Numbered from the stretch's first letter, positions 10,274 through 35,420 are shown. The stretch is 64,000 bases of DNA from Escherichia coli (GCF_030013595.1 NZ_CP122768.1); one strand, 5' to 3'. Notes: generated by a model not told the origin, from the letters alone. Program-made: numbers and translations.

Positions 10274-13280
<3,007 letters not shown>

Positions 13281-24670: not shown

Positions 24671-27600
24671 ATGATTACTATTGACGGTAATGGCGCGGTT
24701 GCTTCGGTGGCGTTTCGCACCAGTGAAGTTATCGCCATCTACCCTATTACCCCCAGTTCCACAATGGCAGAACAGGCTGATGCCTGGGCCGGAAACGGCT
24801 TGAAGAACGTTTGGGGAGACACACCACGCGTGGTTGAAATGCAGTCGGAAGCGGGTGCTATCGCTACCGTGCATGGCGCTTTGCAGACGGGTGCCCTTTC
24901 AACATCGTTTACGTCATCGCAGGGTTTGCTGCTGATGATCCCGACGCTGTACAAACTGGCAGGCGAACTGACGCCATTTGTCCTGCATGTAGCGGCACGT
25001 ACCGTTGCCACACATGCACTCTCTATTTTTGGCGATCATTCCGACGTTATGGCGGTGCGCCAGACGGGTTGCGCGATGTTGTGTGCGGCTAACGTCCAGG
25101 AAGCGCAAGACTTTGCTCTCATTTCGCACATCGCAACGCTGAAGAGCCGCGTGCCATTTATTCATTTCTTTGATGGTTTCCGCACGTCCCACGAAATCAA
25201 TAAAATTGTCCCGCTGGCCGATGACACTATTCTTGATCTCATGCCGCAGGCCGAAATTGATGCTCATCGCGCCCGGGCGCTCAACCCGGAACATCCGGTG
25301 ATCCGCGGTACGTCCGCCAATCCTGACACTTATTTCCAGTCTCGCGAAGCCACCAACCCGTGGTACAACGCAGTTTACGACCATGTTGAACAGGCGATGA
25401 ATGATTTCGCTGCCGCGACAGGTCGTCAGTATCAGCCGTTTGAGTATTACGGGCATCCGCAAGCGGAACGGGTGATTATCCTGATGGACTCTGCCATTGG
25501 CACCTGTGAAGAAGTCGTTGATGAATTGCTAACCCGTGGCGAAAAAGTCGGCGTGCTGAAAGTTCGCCTGTACCGTCCCTTCTCCGCCAAACACTTGCTA
25601 CAAGCTCTGCCGGGATCCGTACGCAGCGTGGCGGTACTGGACAGAACCAAAGAACCCGGTGCCCAGGCTGAACCGCTCTATCTGGATGTGATGACCGCAC
25701 TGGCAGAAGCCTTTAATAATGGCGAGCGCGAAACCCTGCCCCGTGTCATTGGTGGGCGCTATGGTCTTTCATCCAAAGAATTTGGCCCGGACTGTGTACT
25801 GGCGGTATTTGCCGAGCTCAACGCGGCTAAACCGAAAGCGCGCTTTACGGTTGGTATTTACGATGATGTGACCAATCTGTCACTGCCGTTGCCGGAAAAC
25901 ACCCTGCCAAACTCGGCGAAACTTGAAGCCTTGTTTTATGGCCTTGGTAGTGATGGCAGCGTTTCCGCGACCAAAAACAATATCAAGATTATCGGTAATT
26001 CCACGCCGTGGTACGCACAGGGCTATTTTGTTTACGACTCCAAAAAGGCGGGCGGCCTGACGGTTTCTCACCTTCGCGTGAGCGAGCAGCCGATTCGTTC
26101 CGCTTATCTGATTTCCCAGGCTGATTTTGTTGGCTGCCACCAGTTGCAGTTTATTGATAAATATCAGATGGCTGAACGTTTAAAACCTGGCGGCATTTTC
26201 CTGCTCAACACACCGTACAGCGCAGATGAAGTATGGTCGCGCTTGCCGCAGGAAGTTCAGGCCGTGTTAAACCAGAAAAAGGCGCGCTTCTATGTGATTA
26301 ACGCGGCGAAAATCGCCCGCGAATGTGGCCTGGCGGCCCGTATTAATACCGTCATGCAGATGGCTTTTTTCCATCTGACGCAAATTCTGCCTGGCGATAG
26401 CGCCCTCGCAGAATTGCAGGGTGCGATTGCCAAAAGTTACAGTAGCAAAGGTCAGGATCTGGTGGAGCGCAACTGGCAGGCTCTGGCGCTGGCGCGTGAA
26501 TCCGTAGAAGAAGTTCCGTTGCAGCCGGTTAATCCGCACAGCGCCAATCGACCGCCTGTGGTTTCCGATGCCGCTCCTGATTTCGTGAAAACCGTTACCG
26601 CGGCGATGCTCGCCGGGCTTGGTGATGCCCTCCCCGTTTCGGCGCTGCCGCCAGACGGCACCTGGCCGATGGGCACCACGCGCTGGGAAAAACGCAATAT
26701 CGCCGAAGAGATCCCCATCTGGAAAGAGGAACTCTGTACCCAATGTAACCACTGCGTCGCCGCTTGCCCACACTCAGCTATTCGCGCAAAAGTGGTACCG
26801 CCTGAAGCGATGGAAAACGCCCCTGCCAGCCTGCATTCGCTGGATGTGAAATCGCGTGATATGCGCGGGCAGAAATATGTCTTGCAGGTGGCACCGGAAG
26901 ATTGCACCGGTTGTAACCTGTGCGTCGAAGTTTGCCCGGCGAAAGACCGTCAGAATCCAGAGATTAAAGCCATCAATATGATGTCGCGGCTGGAACATGT
27001 CGAAGAAGAGAAAATCAATTACGATTTCTTCCTCAACCTGCCAGAAATCGACCGTAGCAAACTGGAACGTATTGATATTCGTACATCGCAGCTGATTACA
27101 CCGCTGTTTGAATATTCCGGTGCTTGCTCCGGTTGTGGCGAGACGCCGTATATTAAATTGCTGACTCAGCTCTATGGCGACCGGATGTTGATCGCTAACG
27201 CCACCGGCTGTTCTTCAATTTATGGCGGTAACCTGCCCTCTACACCGTATACCACCGATACCAACGGTCGTGGACCGGCATGGGCGAACTCGCTGTTTGA
27301 AGATAACGCCGAATTTGGCCTTGGTTTCCGCCTGACGGTCGATCAACACCGTGTCCGCGTGCTGCGTCTGCTGGATCAATTTGCCGATAAAATCCCGGCG
27401 GAATTACTAACTGCGTTGAAATCAGACGCCAAGCCAGAGGTTCGTCGTGAACAGGTTGCAGCTTTACGCCAGCAACTCAACGATGTTGCCGAAGCACATG
27501 AACTGCTACGTGACGCAGATGCACTGGTAGAAAAATCAATCTGGCTGATTGGTGGCGACGGCTGGGCTTACGATATCGGCTTTGGCGGTCTGGATCATGT

Positions 27601-28195
27601 ATTGAGTTTGACCGAAAACGTCAACATTCTGGTGCTGGATACGCAATGCTATTCCAATACCGGTGGTCAGGCGTCGAAAGCGACACCGCTGGGTGCAGTA
27701 ACTAAGTTTGGCGAGCATGGCAAACGTAAAGCGCGTAAAGATCTTGGCGTCAGTATGATGATGTACGGTCATGTTTATGTGGCGCAGATTTCTCTCGGCG
27801 CGCAGCTCAACCAGACGGTGAAAGCGATTCAGGAAGCGGAAGCGTATCCGGGGCCATCGCTGATCATCGCTTATAGCCCGTGTGAAGAGCATGGTTACGA
27901 TCTGGCACTCAGCCACGATCAGATGCGCCAACTCACTGCCACCGGCTTCTGGCCGCTATATCGCTTCGATCCACGTCGAGCCGATGAAGGCAAACTGCCG
28001 CTGGCACTGGATTCACGCCCGCCGTCAGAAGCACTGGAAGAAACGTTACTTCATGAGCAACGTTTCCGTCGTCTGAATTCGCAGCAGCCAGAAGTGGCAG
28101 AACAGTTATGGAAAGATGCTGCAGCTGATTTGCAAAAACGCTATGACTTCCTGGCACAAATGGCCGGAAAAGCGGAAAAAAGCAACACCGATTAA
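24671..28195 (+). CDS. pfo: pyruvate:flavodoxin/ferredoxin oxidoreductase
   Basis: 1174-aa ORF; two 4Fe-4S ferredoxin Cys clusters (CTQCNHCVAACP, CTGCNLCVEVCP) and TPP-binding region (GGDGWAYDIG). Confidence 0.95.
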   Translation: MITIDGNGAVASVAFRTSEVIAIYPITPSSTMAEQADAWAGNGLKNVWGDTPRVVEMQSEAGAIATVHGALQTGALSTSFTSSQGLLLMIPTLYKLAGELTPFVLHVAARTVATHALSIFGDHSDVMAVRQTGCAMLCAANVQEAQDFALISHIATLKSRVPFIHFFDGFRTSHEINKIVPLADDTILDLMPQAEIDAHRARALNPEHPVIRGTSANPDTYFQSREATNPWYNAVYDHVEQAMNDFAAATGRQYQPFEYYGHPQAERVIILMDSAIGTCEEVVDELLTRGEKVGVLKVRLYRPFSAKHLLQALPGSVRSVAVLDRTKEPGAQAEPLYLDVMTALAEAFNNGERETLPRVIGGRYGLSSKEFGPDCVLAVFAELNAAKPKARFTVGIYDDVTNLSLPLPENTLPNSAKLEALFYGLGSDGSVSATKNNIKIIGNSTPWYAQGYFVYDSKKAGGLTVSHLRVSEQPIRSAYLISQADFVGCHQLQFIDKYQMAERLKPGGIFLLNTPYSADEVWSRLPQEVQAVLNQKKARFYVINAAKIARECGLAARINTVMQMAFFHLTQILPGDSALAELQGAIAKSYSSKGQDLVERNWQALALARESVEEVPLQPVNPHSANRPPVVSDAAPDFVKTVTAAMLAGLGDALPVSALPPDGTWPMGTTRWEKRNIAEEIPIWKEELCTQCNHCVAACPHSAIRAKVVPPEAMENAPASLHSLDVKSRDMRGQKYVLQVAPEDCTGCNLCVEVCPAKDRQNPEIKAINMMSRLEHVEEEKINYDFFLNLPEIDRSKLERIDIRTSQLITPLFEYSGACSGCGETPYIKLLTQLYGDRMLIANATGCSSIYGGNLPSTPYTTDTNGRGPAWANSLFEDNAEFGLGFRLTVDQHRVRVLRLLDQFADKIPAELLTALKSDAKPEVRREQVAALRQQLNDVAEAHELLRDADALVEKSIWLIGGDGWAYDIGFGGLDHVLSLTENVNILVLDTQCYSNTGGQASKATPLGAVTKFGEHGKRKARKDLGVSMMMYGHVYVAQISLGAQLNQTVKAIQEAEAYPGPSLIIAYSPCEEHGYDLALSHDQMRQLTATGFWPLYRFDPRRADEGKLPLALDSRPPSEALEETLLHEQRFRRLNSQQPEVAEQLWKDAAADLQKRYDFLAQMAGKAEKSNTD

Positions 28196-28221
28196 ATGCT
28201 CTGGATAAGAATTATCCAATT

Positions 28222-28328
28222 CTAAAAAAAAGCCCGAACGACTGTTCGGGCTTGTCTCATTATTTGTTGGATAAACAGTAACAAGGGTCCAACAGAAAAT
28301 AATCTTTGTGACAATAAAGGCATATAAC
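28222..28328 (-). ncRNA. micC: MicC small regulatory RNA (Hfq-dependent, represses ompC)
   Basis: Minus-strand sequence GTTATATGCCTTTATTGTCAC...AAGCCCGAACAGTCGTTCGGGCTTTTTTTT matches the recalled MicC sequence, including its terminator; located between pfo and ompN as in K-12. Confidence 0.8.
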
Positions 28329-28555
28329 CCGCGAAGAATAACGTATAGCAAATTAAAAGTATAATTTTTATTTTGTATGTATTATCTTCGATACATTCAC
28401 CAGACTTATTATCATTTCAGAAGAATTATTTGATTAAGGTTTTACTTAAGGCGTAACAAATGATATTTATCGGCTAACTGAACTTCTCCTTTAGGATGTT
28501 TTCACTCCCCGAAATGGGGATAAAAGGCAAATAAAATAACTAAAGGATTTATTCA

Positions 28556-29689
28556 ATGAAAAGCAAAGTACTGGCACTTTTAATTCCTGCCCTGCTCGCC
28601 GCAGGTGCTGCACATGCAGCCGAAGTTTATAATAAAGACGGCAACAAATTAGATCTGTATGGCAAAGTTGATGGCCTGCATTATTTTTCTGATAATTCAG
28701 CGAAAGATGGTGACCAGAGCTATGCGCGTCTGGGTTTTAAAGGCGAAACCCAAATTAACGATCAACTCACTGGCTACGGTCAATGGGAATACAATATTCA
28801 GGCAAACAACACTGAATCCTCAAAAAACCAGTCATGGACCCGTCTGGCATTTGCCGGATTGAAATTTGCAGATTACGGTTCTTTCGATTACGGACGTAAT
28901 TATGGCGTAATGTACGACATCGAAGGCTGGACCGATATGCTGCCTGAATTTGGCGGTGACTCTTATACCAATGCAGACAACTTTATGACTGGTCGTGCCA
29001 ATGGCGTCGCGACTTATCGTAATACTGATTTCTTCGGTCTGGTAAATGGTCTGAACTTCGCGGTGCAGTATCAAGGTAACAACGAAGGTGCCAGTAATGG
29101 TCAGGAAGGCACCAACAACGGACGTGATGTTCGCCATGAAAACGGTGACGGCTGGGGTCTTTCCACAACATATGATTTAGGCATGGGCTTTAGCGCTGGT
29201 GCGGCATACACCTCTTCTGACCGCACCAATGACCAGGTTAACCATACTGCGGCGGGTGGTGATAAAGCAGACGCGTGGACTGCTGGGCTAAAATACGATG
29301 CTAACAATATTTACCTGGCAACCATGTATTCAGAAACGCGTAATATGACCCCGTTTGGCGACAGCGATTATGCTGTTGCTAACAAAACCCAGAACTTTGA
29401 AGTTACTGCACAGTACCAGTTTGATTTTGGTCTGCGTCCGGCAGTCTCTTTCCTGATGTCTAAAGGCCGTGACCTGCACGCTGCCGGTGGTGCAGACAAC
29501 CCGGCAGGTGTTGATGATAAAGATCTGGTTAAATACGCCGATGTTGGCGCGACTTACTATTTCAACAAAAATATGTCCACCTACGTTGACTATAAAATCA
29601 ACCTGTTGGATGAAGATGACAGCTTCTACGCTGCCAACGGCATCTCTACCGATGATATTGTCGCTTTAGGTCTGGTTTATCAGTTCTAA
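28556..29689 (+). CDS. ompN: outer-membrane porin OmpN (OmpC/F family)
   Basis: 377-aa ORF with signal peptide, C-terminal ...LGLVYQF porin signature. Confidence 0.9.
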
Positions 29690-29698
29690 ATCCTCCTG

Positions 29699-29722
29699 CC
29701 CGCTGTTATGGCGGGCTTTTTC
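29699..29722 (+). terminator. rho-independent terminator of ompN
   Basis: gcccgc-tgttatg-gcgggc followed by TTTTT. Confidence 0.6.
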
Positions 29723-29748
29723 TGCTTATTCTTCCTCCTTTGATCTAA

Positions 29749-30264
<516 letters not shown>

Positions 30265-30271
30265 CACTAAC

Positions 30272-30296
30272 GCCCGCACATTGCTGCGGGCTTTTT
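30272..30296 (+). terminator. rho-independent terminator of uspF
   Basis: gcccgcacattgctgcgggc followed by TTTTT. Confidence 0.6.
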
Positions 30297-30439
30297 GATT
30301 CATTTCGCAAATGTGCTGACATTTTCCCCTCTAATCCGTACCATACACGCCACAGTTTTTATATCAGATTTCTTATGCTGGGCGTTCCGGCATGACGCAT
30401 ACTCTTCTGATGCCATATAACGAATTGAGTCGCTTTTAA

Positions 30440-30493
30440 ATGTCGCAAAATCAAGAAATTAGTAAGAAAGAACAATACAACCTGAACAAGTAA
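30440..30493 (+). pseudogene. ttcA: 5' fragment of ttcA (tRNA 2-thiocytidine synthase), cut by prophage integration
   Basis: Hand-translated MSQNQEISKKEQYNLNK then stop; matches the recalled TtcA N-terminus, after which the frame is lost; ttcA is the integration target of the K-12 Rac prophage. Confidence 0.7.
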
Positions 30494-30590
30494 GGGCAAA
30501 AATCACAACTATCTGACGCATAATAATTTTATTTATTTTTCAATACGTTAAGCAACATCAACAACTACAATAAGCTACGATAACCCACTC

Positions 30591-30645
30591 TTTTTTTGCC
30601 CCATTTTTGCCCCTTTTGCGGCTTTTTGCCCCATTTTTGCCACTA
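30591..30645. repeat. five tandem ~10-bp direct repeats, consensus TTTTTGCCCC(A)
   Basis: tttttgcccca/tttttgcccc/ttttgcggc/tttttgcccca/tttttgccac read directly; about 100 bp inside the prophage end. Confidence 0.5.
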
Positions 30646-30803
30646 AAAAAATCCTAAAACACCCAATCCGTGAACTGCAATTGGCACCCATGAATACTTT
30701 CCAATAGAATCTGTATCGGCTGGAAATCATTCAATACTCGCACTATCGAAAGTTATCCAGCCAGCCGCGGTACGTTCTTGCATACGACGTGCCGCGGCTT
30801 CTG

Positions 30804-31370
30804 TTATTCCACTACAAAATTCCTAACCGACCTCAAATCCTCCAGACTGCTCAGTTCCTCTTTCATCTCCCGCTGACGCCGATAAATCTCATCGTTGCGA
30901 TCGACCTGTGCCTGCACCATTGCAGTAAGCAGCTCATCCAGTTTCTGCATCGACAGTTTCACCTGTTGATTATCGGCATCACCCCACGCAAGGGTGGTTC
31001 GTGCCGTATCGGATTTCGCCGCCATTACTACCGGATAAAGACGGGCCATTGAGTCGGGGCCAGCATTCCAGGTACGACCGTTCCATTCGAACGTGAACGG
31101 CTGCGCTTCCTGTTCTGCACGCCAGGCGTTGATTTCCTGGCGTTTAGCGGCTTTTGCCGCTGCGATAAGTTCCGGCGTGACGGTGAACGGGGCGATTTCG
31201 CCCCATTTGCCGCTTTGTAACTCTTCCCAGATACGCTGACCTGTTGTTGCCGTGTCTTCTGGTGTGGCGGTGTACGGAACGGGGGCTTCCATACCCTCAA
31301 ACAGAACATCGCAGTCAATCGCACCGGATTCGGTATAACGGGGACTGGTAATCTCTTTTATCTGCATCAT
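30804..31370 (-). CDS. tail fibre assembly protein (Tfa chaperone)
   Basis: 188-aa ORF directly downstream of, and overlapping, a side-tail-fibre gene; typical Tfa size and placement. Confidence 0.7.
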   Translation of the reverse strand: MMQIKEITSPRYTESGAIDCDVLFEGMEAPVPYTATPEDTATTGQRIWEELQSGKWGEIAPFTVTPELIAAAKAAKRQEINAWRAEQEAQPFTFEWNGRTWNAGPDSMARLYPVVMAAKSDTARTTLAWGDADNQQVKLSMQKLDELLTAMVQAQVDRNDEIYRRQREMKEELSSLEDLRSVRNFVVE

Positions 31371-33370
31371 GCAATCCTCACAAACAAAGAAACTAAGCCC
31401 CGGTTATAAAACTTAACATCCGGGCCGCCAGATAAAGCGACATATGTACCAGGCAGGGTACCCCCGTAGACAAATGACCTCGCAGCAGCACTAAATCCTG
31501 ACGTGCGATACTCCGCTTCAAAGACCACCTGCCGGAGTCTTGAGCCTGACACGCCTTGTGCACGAAGTAACGTAACCTCACTGCTGCCATCGTCCGGTAG
31601 GTATGCAGCAAGAACCAGGCCTCCGGGGAACGGAGGACGCTTTGATGTATTTTCTGTTGCATACAACAGTTGCATCAGGCTATTACGTGACCAGAACAAC
31701 CGCGACCATGCTTTTGGTAGGTCTGGCGGACGCATGGATTTTTTAACCAGTACCTGATATTTCGCAGGACCTTCACCGAATCCCCCATCGTATTCTGCAT
31801 CACCATGAAACGTTATCCACCGACGCGCTTCTGCTTCAATACCGGCAGAGTCAATTCCGTATCGTATGTCTATATCCACAAGTCCACGGAAATAAGGTTG
31901 CCCCATGTCATACGCAATGATGGGGTTATACGAAGTGTTAGTCCCTCCATATTGTGTTACCGCGTAACGCCCGGGGGTGACTTCGAACACCCATTTCAGA
32001 AATTCGGCAGGGCCATTTTGGGCGCTGAAATACACCACTTCCGACGAAGAGAACACATGCCCGTATCCGAACGCCCCCGGCAGAGCAAGACATCCTGCGG
32101 TTCTGTCATAAATATCGCTCTGAGCCTCCATTGTTGCGGCTGCTTTCAGTTCAAGCTCTGTGCGCATGGCTTCAGGCGTGTCCAGTACCAGTAATGCGCG
32201 GGCTTTTTCTGACAACGGAGACAGTGAAGCATTTCCGTCCTGATTAAAGTACAGAAGATTATCTGCCCGTTGCGTCAGTTCACTGAGTTCACTGATTGCT
32301 GTCAGCACATCGTTTAACGGTTGTTTACCTGCCAGCGCGTTAATGACCGTCGTTGAAAAGTTCGGGTCATTCCCCAGCGCCGCTGCCAGCTCGTTCAGTG
32401 TGTCCAGGGCTTCCGGTGACGAGTCAACCAGTGCGGCGAGAAGTTTGCGGACAAACGCCGCGTTCGCTGTTTCCAGACCGACTGCATCGTCCGGTGGGGT
32501 TGGTGTGGTTGGCGTACCCGTGAACGCCGGGCTGTCCAGTGGCGCTTTTGTTTTCGTCTCGTCCATGACGGTTTTGACAGCCTTTGGTGTGGCTGCCAGC
32601 TCTTCGCTGTCGTTGTCCGTATCACTACAGAGTTGCACCAGGCCTTTTTCTGTCGTGGAAGCATTGCTTCCCTTCAGGTCATCAACTATCCGTTGCGCCT
32701 CGTCCTTATGCTGTTTCGCGTTCTGCTCGCTTTTTGCTGCCGCTTCGGCGCTGGCTTTTGCCTCGCCGGTCAGCGTTGCAGCTTCACCGAGTTTATCGAC
32801 CGCTTTCTTGACTATCGTGTCGGCATCCTTGACGGCCTGCTCTGCGCGGGCGGCATCCTGTGTGGCAGATGATGCCAGCTGTGCCACCTGCTTTTTATCT
32901 TTGGCAACGGCTTCTGCATTCTGCTGTACGTTATCCGCCAGCGTCTCGCAGTCGCTCTTAATTTGTTGCGCATCAGCGACGTGTTGCCCGGCCTGTTGTT
33001 CGCTTTCCGCTGCCGCTTCCGCGCTCTGCTGCGCCTGCGCCACCATTTCCTCAAAGCGTTTCACCACGTCGGGTTTGAGGTCGCCTTCATCAAGGGCAGT
33101 CAGAAAGTCGTTCAGCGTACCGGGCCTGGAGTCGTCGTATACAGCAATGTCGCCAACACAGTACTCGTCGCGCCAGTCCTGCTTCAGATATACGCAATAT
33201 TTTCCGGTTTGCGCCTTAAAACAGTACTCGCCACAGTTTCCTGTCACCACGTCGGCAACTGTGCGCATCACCACTTCTGAGGTGTTTACCCGGGATTTCA
33301 GAATTATGTGGCATCCGGACATGGGGATGCCTGCGCCATCTATCAGCGCACCTGATATCACTACAGACAT
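31367..33370 (-). CDS. side tail fibre protein (lambda Stf / Rac StfR-like)
   Basis: N-terminus MSVVISGALIDGAGIPMSG...YDDSRPGTLNDFL and central LAATPKAVKTVMDETKTKAPLDSPAFTGTPTTPT...LNELAAALGNDPNFS match recalled prophage tail-fibre conserved regions; Ala/Gln/Glu-rich coiled-coil shaft. Confidence 0.8.
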   Translation of the reverse strand: MSVVISGALIDGAGIPMSGCHIILKSRVNTSEVVMRTVADVVTGNCGEYCFKAQTGKYCVYLKQDWRDEYCVGDIAVYDDSRPGTLNDFLTALDEGDLKPDVVKRFEEMVAQAQQSAEAAAESEQQAGQHVADAQQIKSDCETLADNVQQNAEAVAKDKKQVAQLASSATQDAARAEQAVKDADTIVKKAVDKLGEAATLTGEAKASAEAAAKSEQNAKQHKDEAQRIVDDLKGSNASTTEKGLVQLCSDTDNDSEELAATPKAVKTVMDETKTKAPLDSPAFTGTPTTPTPPDDAVGLETANAAFVRKLLAALVDSSPEALDTLNELAAALGNDPNFSTTVINALAGKQPLNDVLTAISELSELTQRADNLLYFNQDGNASLSPLSEKARALLVLDTPEAMRTELELKAAATMEAQSDIYDRTAGCLALPGAFGYGHVFSSSEVVYFSAQNGPAEFLKWVFEVTPGRYAVTQYGGTNTSYNPIIAYDMGQPYFRGLVDIDIRYGIDSAGIEAEARRWITFHGDAEYDGGFGEGPAKYQVLVKKSMRPPDLPKAWSRLFWSRNSLMQLLYATENTSKRPPFPGGLVLAAYLPDDGSSEVTLLRAQGVSGSRLRQVVFEAEYRTSGFSAAARSFVYGGTLPGTYVALSGGPDVKFYNRGLVSLFVRIA

Positions 33371-33393
33371 AGTTTTTCTCGCGATAAATTAAA

Positions 33394-33942
33394 TCAGGAA
33401 GAGGCTTCCGGAGAGACGGGCCATTCAATGGCGTTATATGAGGTTTTATCAGTGATAATGTTGAAATCCATCGCCTGCAGCGATTTCGCGTAAATGCGGT
33501 ACGCTTTCAGTTTCTCCCTGTCTTCGTCACTGATTAATCCCAGCAGCAGGTCTTTTTCCCATTCGCTGGTCATGATGCTGGCCTGTTTTAACAGTGCATC
33601 ACGCTCATCTTCCGCTTTAAGTTTGTAGTCAAAAACAAATTCATCATTGCGGTAGAACCAGTATCCCGACGCCTCAATGCGACGATTAGCGGTAATATCC
33701 GGCAACTCAATCACACTTTTATTTTCCGGGCAGATTGAGGTGATGTCTTTTCCGACCCAGACCACTTCGCCAGTTTCAACATAAATAACTTTCAGAGTGT
33801 CTGGCTGAAATTTTTCCTGGGCTTCGTGCCATTCCTGACCATCATCGGAGAACAGCCACAATAAAAATTTATGCTGTCGTGCCAGCTGGTATTGCTCAAT
33901 TGTTTTAGGGTTTTGTGCCGTAAGATTTTTTAAGTGCATCAT
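33394..33942 (-). CDS. tail fibre assembly protein (Tfa chaperone)
   Basis: Begins MMHLKNLTAQNPKTIEQYQL, the typical Tfa N-terminus (compare recalled K-12 TfaE MMHLKNITAGNPKTKEQYQL). Confidence 0.8.
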   Translation of the reverse strand: MMHLKNLTAQNPKTIEQYQLARQHKFLLWLFSDDGQEWHEAQEKFQPDTLKVIYVETGEVVWVGKDITSICPENKSVIELPDITANRRIEASGYWFYRNDEFVFDYKLKAEDERDALLKQASIMTSEWEKDLLLGLISDEDREKLKAYRIYAKSLQAMDFNIITDKTSYNAIEWPVSPEASS

Positions 33943-33944
33943 GA

Positions 33945-35420
33945 TTACAAACTCGCTACATTTCGCCAGACACCATTAATCAGAACCTGCACCGGGCGTG
34001 CATTGGCCCAGTCCACACTTTCACCGCCATCAACACCACTCAGTAAATGACCTGATGGCGCATTTCCTCCGCGTCCAATACCAATGGCACCTCCCAGACG
34101 CACATCCTGCACACCACCTGTTCTGGTCTGGTAACGGGCATCAAAATTTCCGTAGTTTGATGGAACCATCTGCCCGTTTACGGCAAACGTTATGCTGTTA
34201 TCCGTATTCCTCTGACTGTAAAAATGCCAGCCAGAATCATCACCAAGCTCTGCAACAACAGGCCTTGAGGAATTTCCCCATAGACTAAATCTTGCACTCT
34301 TCGTGGAAGAACTGTCACACGACAGCGTGAACTTTCTTAAATTGCCGGTCGAGAGATTTTCTAATGCCAGCACACCGTTTTTTGTAAAACGAAAGGCGTT
34401 GTGTCCCTCTGCAAACACATTAATAACACCGCGTCCGCCCCACTTAAAACCGGTATTGCTATCACAGAGCGTGAGTGATTTTTCACCCAGATTGTTCTCA
34501 TTACCGATGCCAATCCTGTCACCAATAACCACATCGCCCTGGCGCAGGTTAATGGAAATGGGCCGCAGTGGGCCAATATCGCCATTCTCGCCCTGACCTT
34601 CACTGGTAGGGATAAGGTGCAGGCACTCTTCCGAGCGACGAAAAATCAGGCCAAAAGCTTCGTTGAAAATCCTCAGTGCATTAACACCACGGATTTTTAG
34701 TTCTCCGGTCATCAAATCACCAGATTTTTTTACATATCGCAGATCAAAATCTGAATAGATATTGCCAGGGTTTATCACGCTGAAATAGCTTTTCTCGCTA
34801 TCAAGAAGACAAATTAAGGGAATGCCTTTAATGATATCGTTCGCTACCAGCTCGGACTTGTTCCCCTTATAAAGCGGGAACGTACCAAGAACCTTTCCGC
34901 CCAGTGTTAATTGAAGTGTCGCGGCATTGGTATTGTTCTGAACGGGGAAAACGATAATCGGGGTTCGTAGCGTCCAGTCTGTACCTCCATTAACAAAAAA
35001 CGTCGCGGGAAGCTCCAGAGTCAGCGCGTTTGCAGTGCCGCCAGCAACTCCCGCAATATAATGACCACTCTGAAGCTGCGCTATCTGTACGAAATGGTTT
35101 TCCGAACCACGCGTGGCAAAGTTAGCCACAACGTCATTAAGGGACCAACCTTTCGCGGTCGTTCCTTCCTGCCCACGAATGACTTTCAACACATCACCGC
35201 TTACCGATACCAGGTGACAAATCTCAAATGCAGACTCTTTATTATCGGTAAGCGTAATTTTTGCATAGACGCGTTGCCCGTTCGATTTATTTTCAAAATC
35301 GGCAGAAAGCAATTTTGCAAATTTAGCTCCCGTGCCCGGCATCACCGGAATATCAGTCTGAATCGTCGTGATATCGCCAGCCAGTGCTGAAACAACGTTA
35401 TTGCCAAATCCAAGAATCAT
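33945..35420 (-). CDS. tail fibre protein (distal/receptor-binding)
   Basis: 491-aa Gly/Asn/Ser-rich ORF directly upstream of a Tfa gene and downstream of baseplate genes. Confidence 0.6.
   Translation of the reverse strand: MILGFGNNVVSALAGDITTIQTDIPVMPGTGAKFAKLLSADFENKSNGQRVYAKITLTDNKESAFEICHLVSVSGDVLKVIRGQEGTTAKGWSLNDVVANFATRGSENHFVQIAQLQSGHYIAGVAGGTANALTLELPATFFVNGGTDWTLRTPIIVFPVQNNTNAATLQLTLGGKVLGTFPLYKGNKSELVANDIIKGIPLICLLDSEKSYFSVINPGNIYSDFDLRYVKKSGDLMTGELKIRGVNALRIFNEAFGLIFRRSEECLHLIPTSEGQGENGDIGPLRPISINLRQGDVVIGDRIGIGNENNLGEKSLTLCDSNTGFKWGGRGVINVFAEGHNAFRFTKNGVLALENLSTGNLRKFTLSCDSSSTKSARFSLWGNSSRPVVAELGDDSGWHFYSQRNTDNSITFAVNGQMVPSNYGNFDARYQTRTGGVQDVRLGGAIGIGRGGNAPSGHLLSGVDGGESVDWANARPVQVLINGVWRNVASL

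Follow-up and report, generated by a model that had tools for sequence, protein, structure and literature searches.

A 64,000-nucleotide (nt) stretch of Escherichia coli DNA (GCF_030013595.1, NZ_CP122768.1), called the window throughout, carries at positions 30,804 to 35,420 the terminal cassette of a prophage, in which two tail fibre genes are each followed by a gene for a chaperone-type protein. The best explanation, to which we assign a probability of roughly 0.7, is that this cassette specifies two receptor-binding fibres, each with its own chaperone, that are made together and without an inversion switch. The first pair consists of fibre 1 and a Tfa protein, and the second of a fibre resembling lambda Stf and a protein with a DUF4376 domain. 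The initial annotation had described two fibre-plus-Tfa pairs in tandem on one strand. The tandem pairs were borne out as four open reading frames (ORFs), and the first Tfa by its PF02413 match, whereas the second "Tfa" turned out to be a DUF4376 protein with no match to PF02413. Both fibre genes are full length relative to their homologues, and neither is the pseudogene or fragment that would have undone the proposal. Because the ORFs are intact, the docking domain of Stf is under purifying selection, and two fibres have precedents in Ur-lambda (the gpJ central fibre and Stf) and in T5, we infer that both fibres are displayed at once on one virion.

In the scheme that we propose, a temperate contractile-tailed phage of the Rac-SA53 type, resident at the Rac site, would co-express all four genes from its late tail operon. 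Fibre 1 would be the primary baseplate fibre, with N-terminal 235 residues specific to the baseplate type and a Mu S-like distal part folded by the Mu U-like Tfa. Fibre 2, the Stf-like protein of 667 amino acids (aa), would be an accessory side fibre, with a collar for docking on the virion, then a shaft whose length varies, and finally a hypervariable tip, folded or capped by the DUF4376-family chaperone. By analogy with lambda Stf, it would speed or broaden adsorption without being essential. The fibre 1 tip, Tfa, Stf, and the DUF4376 protein would travel as one ~4-kb block between unrelated contractile tails.

Fibre 1 and its Tfa chaperone

Fibre 1 joins a lineage-specific N-terminal domain to a distal part with well-characterized relatives (Table 1). 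In phmmer searches against the PDB, the distal part matched Mu S (5yvq_A residues 413–503, E value 2e-10) and T4 gp34 (E value 5e-12), and it also corresponds to phrog_6859, "tail fiber protein" (E value 1e-76). Its terminal segment is homologous to the C terminus of Mu S, and a U-like Tfa is encoded downstream, the combination that defines a Mu S-type baseplate fibre. The distal tip is probably receptor-binding. When the receptor-binding C termini of both fibres were compared with characterized fibres, as the initial annotation had proposed, the tip of fibre 1 was thus assigned to Mu S, and the tip of Stf found no sequence match in the PDB or in Pfam. The N-terminal domain of fibre 1 showed a weak match to PDB 8jov_1, a "putative tail fiber protein" (E value 2e-4), and a literature search on entry 8JOV returned nothing useful.

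The Tfa protein matches PF02413, the Caudo_TAP family to which lambda Tfa, Mu U, and P2 G belong, with an E value of 2.2e-22 (80 bits, against a cut-off of 22.1), Mu U (5yvq_B) with an E value of 2e-34, and phrog_136 with an E value of 1e-54. Each half of the protein shows covariation with the tip of fibre 1 (rho 0.48 and 0.61). The Tfa of Mu stays bound to the fibre tip (cited in PMC10579305).

The gene directly upstream of fibre 1 encodes a 208-aa baseplate protein, and for comparison we used a census of 80 IMG/VR loci that encode this protein, taken with 10-kb flanks and classed by tblastn and ORF calling. The loci fall into an E. coli-type group (53 loci, at least 91% identity) and a distant group (27 loci, 69–79% identity). 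Across the 80 loci, the identity of the baseplate protein covaries with that of the fibre 1 N terminus: 100% identity in the former goes with 97–100% in the latter, 96% with 83%, and 75% with 63–75%. The 208-aa protein is the presumptive docking partner of this domain. A guess that it belongs to DUF2612 was dropped, as Pfam gave no match. In phage phiP27, a different part stands in place of fibre 1 residues 1–235, and the likeness starts at residue 115 of its fibre L54, equivalent to about fibre 1 residue 229. Because the N terminus covaries with the baseplate protein and alone is swapped on a different tail, we regard fibre 1 as the likely primary baseplate fibre.

The Stf-like fibre and its DUF4376 partner

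The N terminus of the second fibre is a collar domain of the lambda Stf type. Residues 1–93 match residues 1–93 of the Ur-lambda Stf collar domain (PDB 9e7m/9mgh, solved in 2025; E value 6e-17), and residues 1–193 match residues 1–184 of the collar spike gp40 of the Vibrio myophage XM1 (7kjk_A3; E value 7.7e-10). The shaft contains a Phage_fiber_2 repeat at residues 238–277 (PF03406, E value 1.5e-15) next to a coiled-coil-like stretch rich in alanine and glutamine. It also matches Mu S 99–155 and the shaft of "tail collar fibers gp4" (9d93). Residues 167–415 are missing from phiP27 L56, and the shaft is longer in tail3 of phage Rac-SA53 (1061 aa).

The distal tip, the presumed receptor-binding domain, is 94% identical to residues 220–490 of phiP27 L56. 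An AlphaFold2 model of residues 400–667, built from a 22-sequence alignment, reached a mean predicted local distance difference test score (pLDDT) of 49.5, and Foldseek found nothing in the PDB at an E value of 1e-3 or below. The tip allele of the window is also found on PF12571 N termini, in many E. coli fibres of ~430 aa. Since the same tip is joined to the PF12571 adaptor, it acts as an independent module.

The 188-residue ORF that follows directly downstream matches PF14301 (DUF4376) over residues 71–175 with an E value of 4e-17 (63 bits, against a cut-off of 25). It showed no PF02413 match in Pfam at an E value of 0.01 or below, no PDB match to Mu U, and no tblastn match with K-12 TfaR. 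By these comparisons, the protein belongs to the DUF4376 fibre-chaperone family, distinct from Tfa. DUF4376 forms the C-terminal domain of gp27 of the Alteromonas myophage V22, which is needed for active fibres, and of gp9 of the Alteromonas schitovirus A5 (PMC7289586, PMC10579305). A5 gp9 binds its fibre and has been proposed to be a transient cap (PMC10579305). In V22 (gp26/gp27) and A5 (gp8/gp9), as in the window, the gene for the chaperone with its C-terminal DUF4376 lies directly downstream of the fibre gene. The V22/A5 module is common to morphologically different phages and is predicted to have a helical body with beta-hairpins (PMC10579305). A confident structure model of the window protein has a helical body with beta-hairpins. 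However, its similarity to the Alteromonas proteins is confined to the domain family, and the partner fibres are unrelated.

Adjacency of the Stf and DUF4376 genes is kept in 26 loci, which represent distinct intact pairs and include the window, Rac-SA53, phiP27, and the record "Actinobacillus phage vB_Apl-pPE4" (pPE4). Across these 26 pairs, the identity of the Stf tip covaries with that of the DUF4376 protein's N-terminal 65 residues (Mantel rho 0.56, p 0.0005), and shows no covariation with the DUF4376 domain itself or with the collar. Such a pattern would be expected if a generic chaperone body carried an N-terminal part that determines specificity, and adjacency of the two genes could yield it too.

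Operon layout and the lack of an inversion system

All four ORFs of the cassette are co-directional on the minus strand. The stop codon of the 208-aa baseplate gene and the start codon of fibre 1 overlap (ATGA), the fibre 1 stop and the Tfa start are 2 nt apart, the Tfa stop and the Stf start are 23 nt apart, and the DUF4376 start overlaps the Stf stop (ATGA), with GAGG upstream. Inside the cassette, motifs resembling promoters or terminators are no more numerous than shuffled sequence would lead one to expect, and they provide no sign of separate regulation. With junctions this compact and motifs at this level, the simplest reading is one late operon, in which all four genes apparently lie.

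The two fibres could nevertheless be alternatives, produced one at a time by differential termination, translational control, or competition for a docking site. A weak hairpin with a T-rich tract lies over the Tfa stop, just upstream of Stf (33397–33409), and the Stf ribosome-binding site looks weak, both of which would suit such a mechanism. Yet terminator-like matches are no commoner than in shuffled sequence (13 found, 10.2 expected), no regulator or recombinase lies nearby, and the two fibres' N-terminal domains are unrelated (phrog_25419 and PF08400), which makes competition for a single site unlikely. We give an alternation of this kind very little credence.

The claim that the cassette lacks an invertase withstood every search. 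A tblastn search with K-12 PinR gave no match in the 64-kb window (best E value 0.03, outside the prophage) or in the 80 census loci, and the consensus of the 26-bp Din-type crossover site, allowing up to 3 mismatches, had zero matches. Inverted repeats in 30200–37400 are short, with 74–93% complementarity, and at chance level. No invertase is annotated in phiP27 or in the whole of the closely related ETEC1732 prophage, where the integrase is the sole recombinase.

Pair 1 is homologous to the S–U pair of Mu, in the distal part of the fibre and in Mu U, and both the window and Mu provide more than one receptor specificity per genome. In Mu, S'–U' belong to the Gin-invertible G segment, which has equivalents with Pin or Cin in e14, Rac, and P1; two alternative tip/Tfa sets lie in opposite orientation and are flipped by a serine invertase at 26-bp sites, so that only one is expressed at a time. 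The second fibre of the window is instead a complete, separate gene on the same strand with its own docking domain, and neither an invertase nor crossover sites accompany it. That the cassette is a degenerate G segment of the Mu type was considered and rejected for these reasons.

The contrast drawn in the initial annotation with the end of K-12 Rac was correct in that pinR follows stfR-tfaR there. The framing did not hold, as the two tails are unrelated and the window prophage has only the attachment site in common with K-12 Rac. It is neither "Rac minus pinR" nor the remnant of a Rac-like siphovirus, and represents a different tail with a cassette of the phiP27/Rac-SA53 type.

Mosaicism and spread of the cassette

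The same four genes occur as L54–L57 of the Stx2e phage phiP27, tail1–tail4 of the Escherichia phage Rac-SA53, and gp67–70 of pPE4. In phiP27 and Rac-SA53, order and orientation are identical to those in the window, the cassette lies at the prophage end, and there is no invertase. The identity between phiP27 and the window is 96% for Tfa (L55), 84% for the Stf N terminus, and 85% for the DUF4376 protein, and at the DNA level it amounts to 94% over the cassette only. It falls into three blocks: 30704–32122, covering the DUF4376 gene and Stf residues 416–667; 32871–34163, covering Stf residues 1–166, Tfa, and fibre 1 residues 419–491; and 34543–34712, covering fibre 1 residues 236–292. Beyond these blocks, the Mu-like tail of phiP27 is unrelated to that of the window. 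When the structural proteins of phiP27 were compared with the window by tblastn, none matched except L54 (from residue 115), L55, L56, and L57. A transfer of the cassette, from about fibre 1 residue 229–236 onward, has therefore taken place between two contractile tails with no other detectable shared sequence.

Rac-SA53 is 93% identical to the window and has the same baseplate and integration site, with a DNA identity of 92–96%. Its fibre 1 tip and most of its Tfa, including the N-terminal part, are different, and its Stf is longer. The pPE4 record is 95% identical to the window prophage, and within the cassette only a short stretch near the fibre 1 tip differs. Across baseplate, fibres, and cassette, pPE4 (PP818812.1, locus L003 of the census) shows 91–97% DNA identity, and its host is stated as A. 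pleuropneumoniae. This attribution looks doubtful, and the record may represent an E. coli prophage. Compared with these three relatives, fibre 1 has mosaic breakpoints at about residues 236, 292, 419, and 441–479, and residues 236–292 form a conserved island between variable segments. Taken as a whole, the breakpoints are of the kind that host-range mosaicism usually leaves.

In the E. coli-type group, fibre 1, Tfa, and Stf follow one another on the same strand wherever the downstream sequence is long enough. In 22 loci, Stf and the DUF4376 gene after it are both intact; one of the 22, L020, also has a frame disruption ~87 codons into Stf. One further locus combines Stf with a TfaR-like Tfa, and 8 loci have a 608-aa Stf allele with no recognizable chaperone. 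This allele (L027, L041, L043, L048, and L050–L053) has the usual collar and an unrelated C terminus with no intact chaperone gene after it, and in L053 only a ~37-aa DUF4376 remnant follows. It sits ~1.9–3.9 kb downstream of the 208-aa baseplate gene (in loci with a complete upstream flank, the match to that gene stops near locus position 10624) and may be a self-chaperoning fibre with an intramolecular chaperone. A recurrent deletion derivative (L019, L022–L024, L028, L030, L032, and L046, as well as H59 and H60 in complete E. coli genomes) joins the first ~45 Stf codons, through a short shaft fragment, to the C-terminal part of DUF4376, so that a truncated DUF4376 ORF comes straight after Tfa.

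Stf proteins are between 473 and 1061 aa long, and the tips form 11 allele groups below 70% identity among the 26 loci. The collar domain is 81–100% identical to that of the window in the E. coli-type loci, with a ratio of nonsynonymous to synonymous substitution rates (dN/dS) of 0.09–0.12 over 19 alleles, and is, on this measure, under purifying selection where intact. Of 5,426 complete E. coli genomes, at least 105 contain the junction from Tfa to Stf at 80% coverage or more. The two-fibre arrangement is the norm in this phage group, and examples of it were already deposited and annotated in phiP27 (2002) and Rac-SA53 (2016).

Possible mounting of the second fibre on a contractile tail

The structural module of the window is predicted to encode a contractile tail with sheath, tube, and baseplate (Table 1), and this separates the second fibre from its best-known relative. 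Like the Stf–Tfa pair of Ur-lambda, the window pair has a homologous collar, would form an accessory, dispensable fibre, and lies at the end of the tail operon with the chaperone gene next to the fibre gene (PMC12617516). In Ur-lambda, 12 Stf collar domains ring the gpV/gpM junction, and the Stf fibres, which are displayed alongside the primary receptor-binding protein, make adsorption 10–30 fold faster and are not essential (PMC12617516). However, lambda is a siphovirus, with a T4 gp37-like tip that binds OmpC and a PF02413 Tfa. The window fibre resembles the lambda type in its PF08400/collar N terminus, and differs in its unrelated tip, its DUF4376 partner, and a prophage that encodes a sheath and baseplate and not a non-contractile tail for mounting at a gpV/gpM junction.

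A second precedent is provided by gp40 of XM1, a contractile-tailed phage with separate baseplate spikes, in which a homologous Ig-like N-terminal domain is followed by a trimeric coiled coil. Through this domain, gp40 attaches at the neck to the head-completion and tail-terminator proteins (PMC10457771). XM1 gp40 differs from Stf in its tailspike-like C terminus and in the position of its gene, away from the baseplate genes. Because the sheath covers the tube, the neck is the most plausible docking site, and our leading guess is that the Stf collar would ring the neck as gp40 does. We compared 18 concatenated structural proteins of the window (4,850 aa, from the baseplate through a putative head protease, 35417–52366) with the PDB using phmmer. 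The only chains matched were of the lytic-transglycosylase/tape-measure type and phi92 gp138-like spikes, with no link to XM1, Mu, P2, or lambda proteins; the docking site of Stf is therefore not inferable by homology.

Several observations weigh against the production and joint display of two fibres. The partners of the lambda collar, gpV and gpM, are siphovirus proteins that the window prophage does not have, and tblastn detects no neck or tail protein common to phiP27 and the window, and phmmer no similarity between the neck and baseplate proteins of XM1 and the 18 structural proteins of the window. Our literature search found no electron microscopy or proteomics of virions of this phage group, and nothing useful on virion morphology or fibre function of phiP27, Rac-SA53, or pPE4. 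The purifying selection on the collar may have been exerted in part in siphovirus donors before transfer, and the covariation between the Stf tip and the N terminus of the DUF4376 protein is explicable by physical linkage alone. Fold searches with the DUF4376 model gave prefoldin as the best match and did not recover the similarity to intramolecular chaperones, such as those of T5 pb1 and K1F, that is reported for the Alteromonas DUF4376 proteins. Moreover, 7–8 E. coli-type loci carry a deletion that fuses the Stf N terminus to the DUF4376 C terminus. In the distant group, the second pair is present only in L085 of the 27 loci; about a dozen loci with at least ~4 kb of downstream sequence have a single fibre–Tfa pair, and the remaining loci are too short to judge. 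Given the deletion remnants and the absence in distant relatives, the second pair is accessory and can be lost.

Such losses favour a rival explanation, in which the Stf and DUF4376 genes are passenger DNA, gained at the prophage end by recombination with lambdoid siphophage prophages. The pair, whether expressed or silent, would persist as a recombination reservoir or a decaying relic, and its products would not be assembled on the virion. The lack of the siphovirus tube and tip proteins that the lambda collar contacts, the failure of sequence comparison to find a docking partner, the frameshifted Stf of L020, and the location of the cassette at the extreme prophage end, adjoining attR, would also be expected of passenger DNA. 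A relic would not be expected, however, to persist as 26 distinct intact pairs, with a collar held at a dN/dS of ~0.1 while the tip diversified, nor to begin, within one operon and without a convincing terminator in between, 23 nt past the stop of Tfa. The pair is also conserved in two unrelated myovirus backbones, and XM1 provides a homologous N-terminal domain that is mounted on a myovirus. On balance, we consider passenger DNA unlikely.

A more far-reaching proposal, which we put forward only tentatively and regard as doubtful, is that the collar domain is a backbone-independent adaptor that lets an accessory fibre and its chaperone travel in a ~4-kb plug-in cassette between contractile tails that have no detectable similarity in sequence. 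This may work by either of two routes: the collar may ring any six-fold neck or tail structure, or it may dock on the cassette's own primary fibre. The second route amounts to a branched fibre, in which the Stf collar would dock on fibre 1 residues 236–292 or on the tip-bound Tfa. The cassette would then be self-contained, and only the fibre 1 N terminus would need fitting to a new baseplate. That the cassette from about fibre 1 residue 229–236 onward is the only thing common to two otherwise unrelated tails, and that residues 236–292 are conserved between variable flanks, is consistent with branching. On the other hand, both solved collar homologues ring a six-fold tail or neck and not a fibre, and conserved islands in fibre genes are often mere recombination linkers. 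A branched fibre is very improbable in our judgement. We retain the reading of two fibres made together, with the collar of the second placed provisionally at the neck.

The prophage and its surroundings

The E. coli chromosomal genes ydbK/nifJ, ompN, and uspF occupy 24671–30264, and the prophage comes next. It begins at ~30440–30490, a position of the attR core that is extrapolated from K-12 coordinates, and extends beyond the end of the window. The K-12 uspF–ttcC–Rac end is matched at 97% identity as far as window position 30660, and the phage therefore occupies the Rac attachment site. The fibre cassette comprises the last genes of the prophage.

Table 1. Features of the fibre cassette, the contractile tail module, and the right end of the prophage. 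Positions are counted from the first nucleotide of the window; aa, amino acids.
Feature	Position	Strand	Basis or remark
Rac-type attR core (ttcC fragment) and arm, prophage right end	30440–30660	none	97% K-12 identity; attB annotated at the Rac-SA53 equivalent
DUF4376 protein, 188 aa, thought likely from its family to chaperone or cap the Stf tip (putative)	30804–31370	-	PF14301
Stf-like fibre, 667 aa	31367–33370	-	PF08400, E value 9e-62; phrog_2636, E value 1e-213
Stf residues 416–667 and stop, distal hypervariable tip, presumed receptor-binding domain	31367–32125	-	Likeness to phiP27 L56; allele groups
Stf residues 94–415, shaft: coiled-coil-like Ala/Gln-rich stretch and Phage_fiber_2 repeat	32126–33091	-	Length varies among relatives
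Stf residues 1–93, lambda-Stf-type collar (virion-docking) domain	33092–33370	-	PF08400 and PDB matches
Tfa (Tfa1), 182 aa, Mu U/lambda Tfa family, cognate to fibre 1	33394–33942	-	PF02413
Fibre 1, 491 aa	33945–35420	-	phrog_25419, E value 2e-120
Fibre 1 residues 236–491 and stop, T4 gp34-type repeats and Mu S-like distal tip	33945–34715	-	phmmer against PDB; phrog_6859
Fibre 1 residues 1–235, lineage-specific baseplate-proximal domain	34716–35420	-	phrog_25419 over residues 1–254
208-aa baseplate protein	35417–36043	-	phrog_8212, E value 1e-118; after the Baseplate_J gene, directly upstream of the fibre 1 gene
Baseplate_J protein	36027–37253		PF04865
phi92 gp138-like spike	39926–40639		
Baseplate hub	40639–41646		
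Tape measure with lytic transglycosylase domain	42581–44662		
Putative tube	45338–45781		Placed by adjacency to the sheath gene; sole match phrog_6566, function unknown
Tail sheath	45793–47130		phrog_205

Within the attR arm, in sequence common to K-12 Rac, 3–4 direct copies of TTTTTGCCCCA stand at 30593–30644; they may be arm-type binding sites for the integrase or excisionase. Unannotated sequence at the very end of over 100 records of phages that convert to Shiga toxin (Stx) 1 or 2 production is 86% identical to the ~200 bp at 30708–30911, which cover the 3' end of the DUF4376 gene and sequence downstream of it, a likeness that suggests a common prophage-end or recombination linker sequence.

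The closest records include porcine enterotoxigenic E. coli (ETEC) chromosomes. ETEC1732 is 99.2–99.8% identical over most of the prophage and 96.6% identical over 43389–51547. Its annotation covers the entire prophage, with Rac-type early genes (intR, xisR, recET, ydaT, and others) in addition to the structural module; the ETEC1732 prophage thus has recET and intR in common with K-12 Rac beyond the attachment site.

Inside the baseplate operon, an opposite-strand insert at 37275–39149 (+) stands between the gene at 39125–39472 and that for Baseplate_J. Two of its ORFs, 37275–37823 and 37833–38306, have low GC content, signal-peptide-like N termini, and no Pfam match, and a third, 38586–39149, encodes an AntA/AntB antirepressor (PF08346, E value 8e-27). 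The insert is conserved in Rac-SA53 (rac61, rac62, and ant). Farther along, the ORF at 53125–54564 (-) matches Phage_portal_3 (PF06381, E value 2.5e-14). In the RefSeq record of ETEC1732, its orthologue bears the name "anti-CBASS protein Acb1 family protein," probably through an artefact of annotation.

A two-gene AB5 toxin cassette (60195–61413, -) with a low GC content of 38% is flanked by the late-regulatory genes on one side and the lysis genes on the other, at the position that Stx occupies in Stx phages. Its A subunit, of 241 aa, matches Pertussis_S1, Scabin-like, and Enterotoxin_a (PF02917, E value 4e-15), and the ETEC1732 annotation gives the small ORF downstream as a subtilase-family AB5 binding subunit.

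Implications

The result is mainly a gain in annotation: the second "Tfa" is a chaperone of the DUF4376 type, and the prophage is of the contractile-tailed Rac-SA53/phiP27 type. Mobile, and common in E. coli of porcine, bovine, and other origin, the two-fibre cassette serves as a host-range module. The phages that bear it carry toxins, Stx2e in phiP27 and a pertussis-like AB5 toxin in the window prophage and Rac-SA53 relatives, and the receptors of both fibres therefore set which strains can be converted. How a lambda-type collar is mounted on a contractile tail also bears on fibre-swapping strategies in phage engineering. If the collar is indeed a backbone-independent adaptor, a single recombination event would transplant two receptor specificities.

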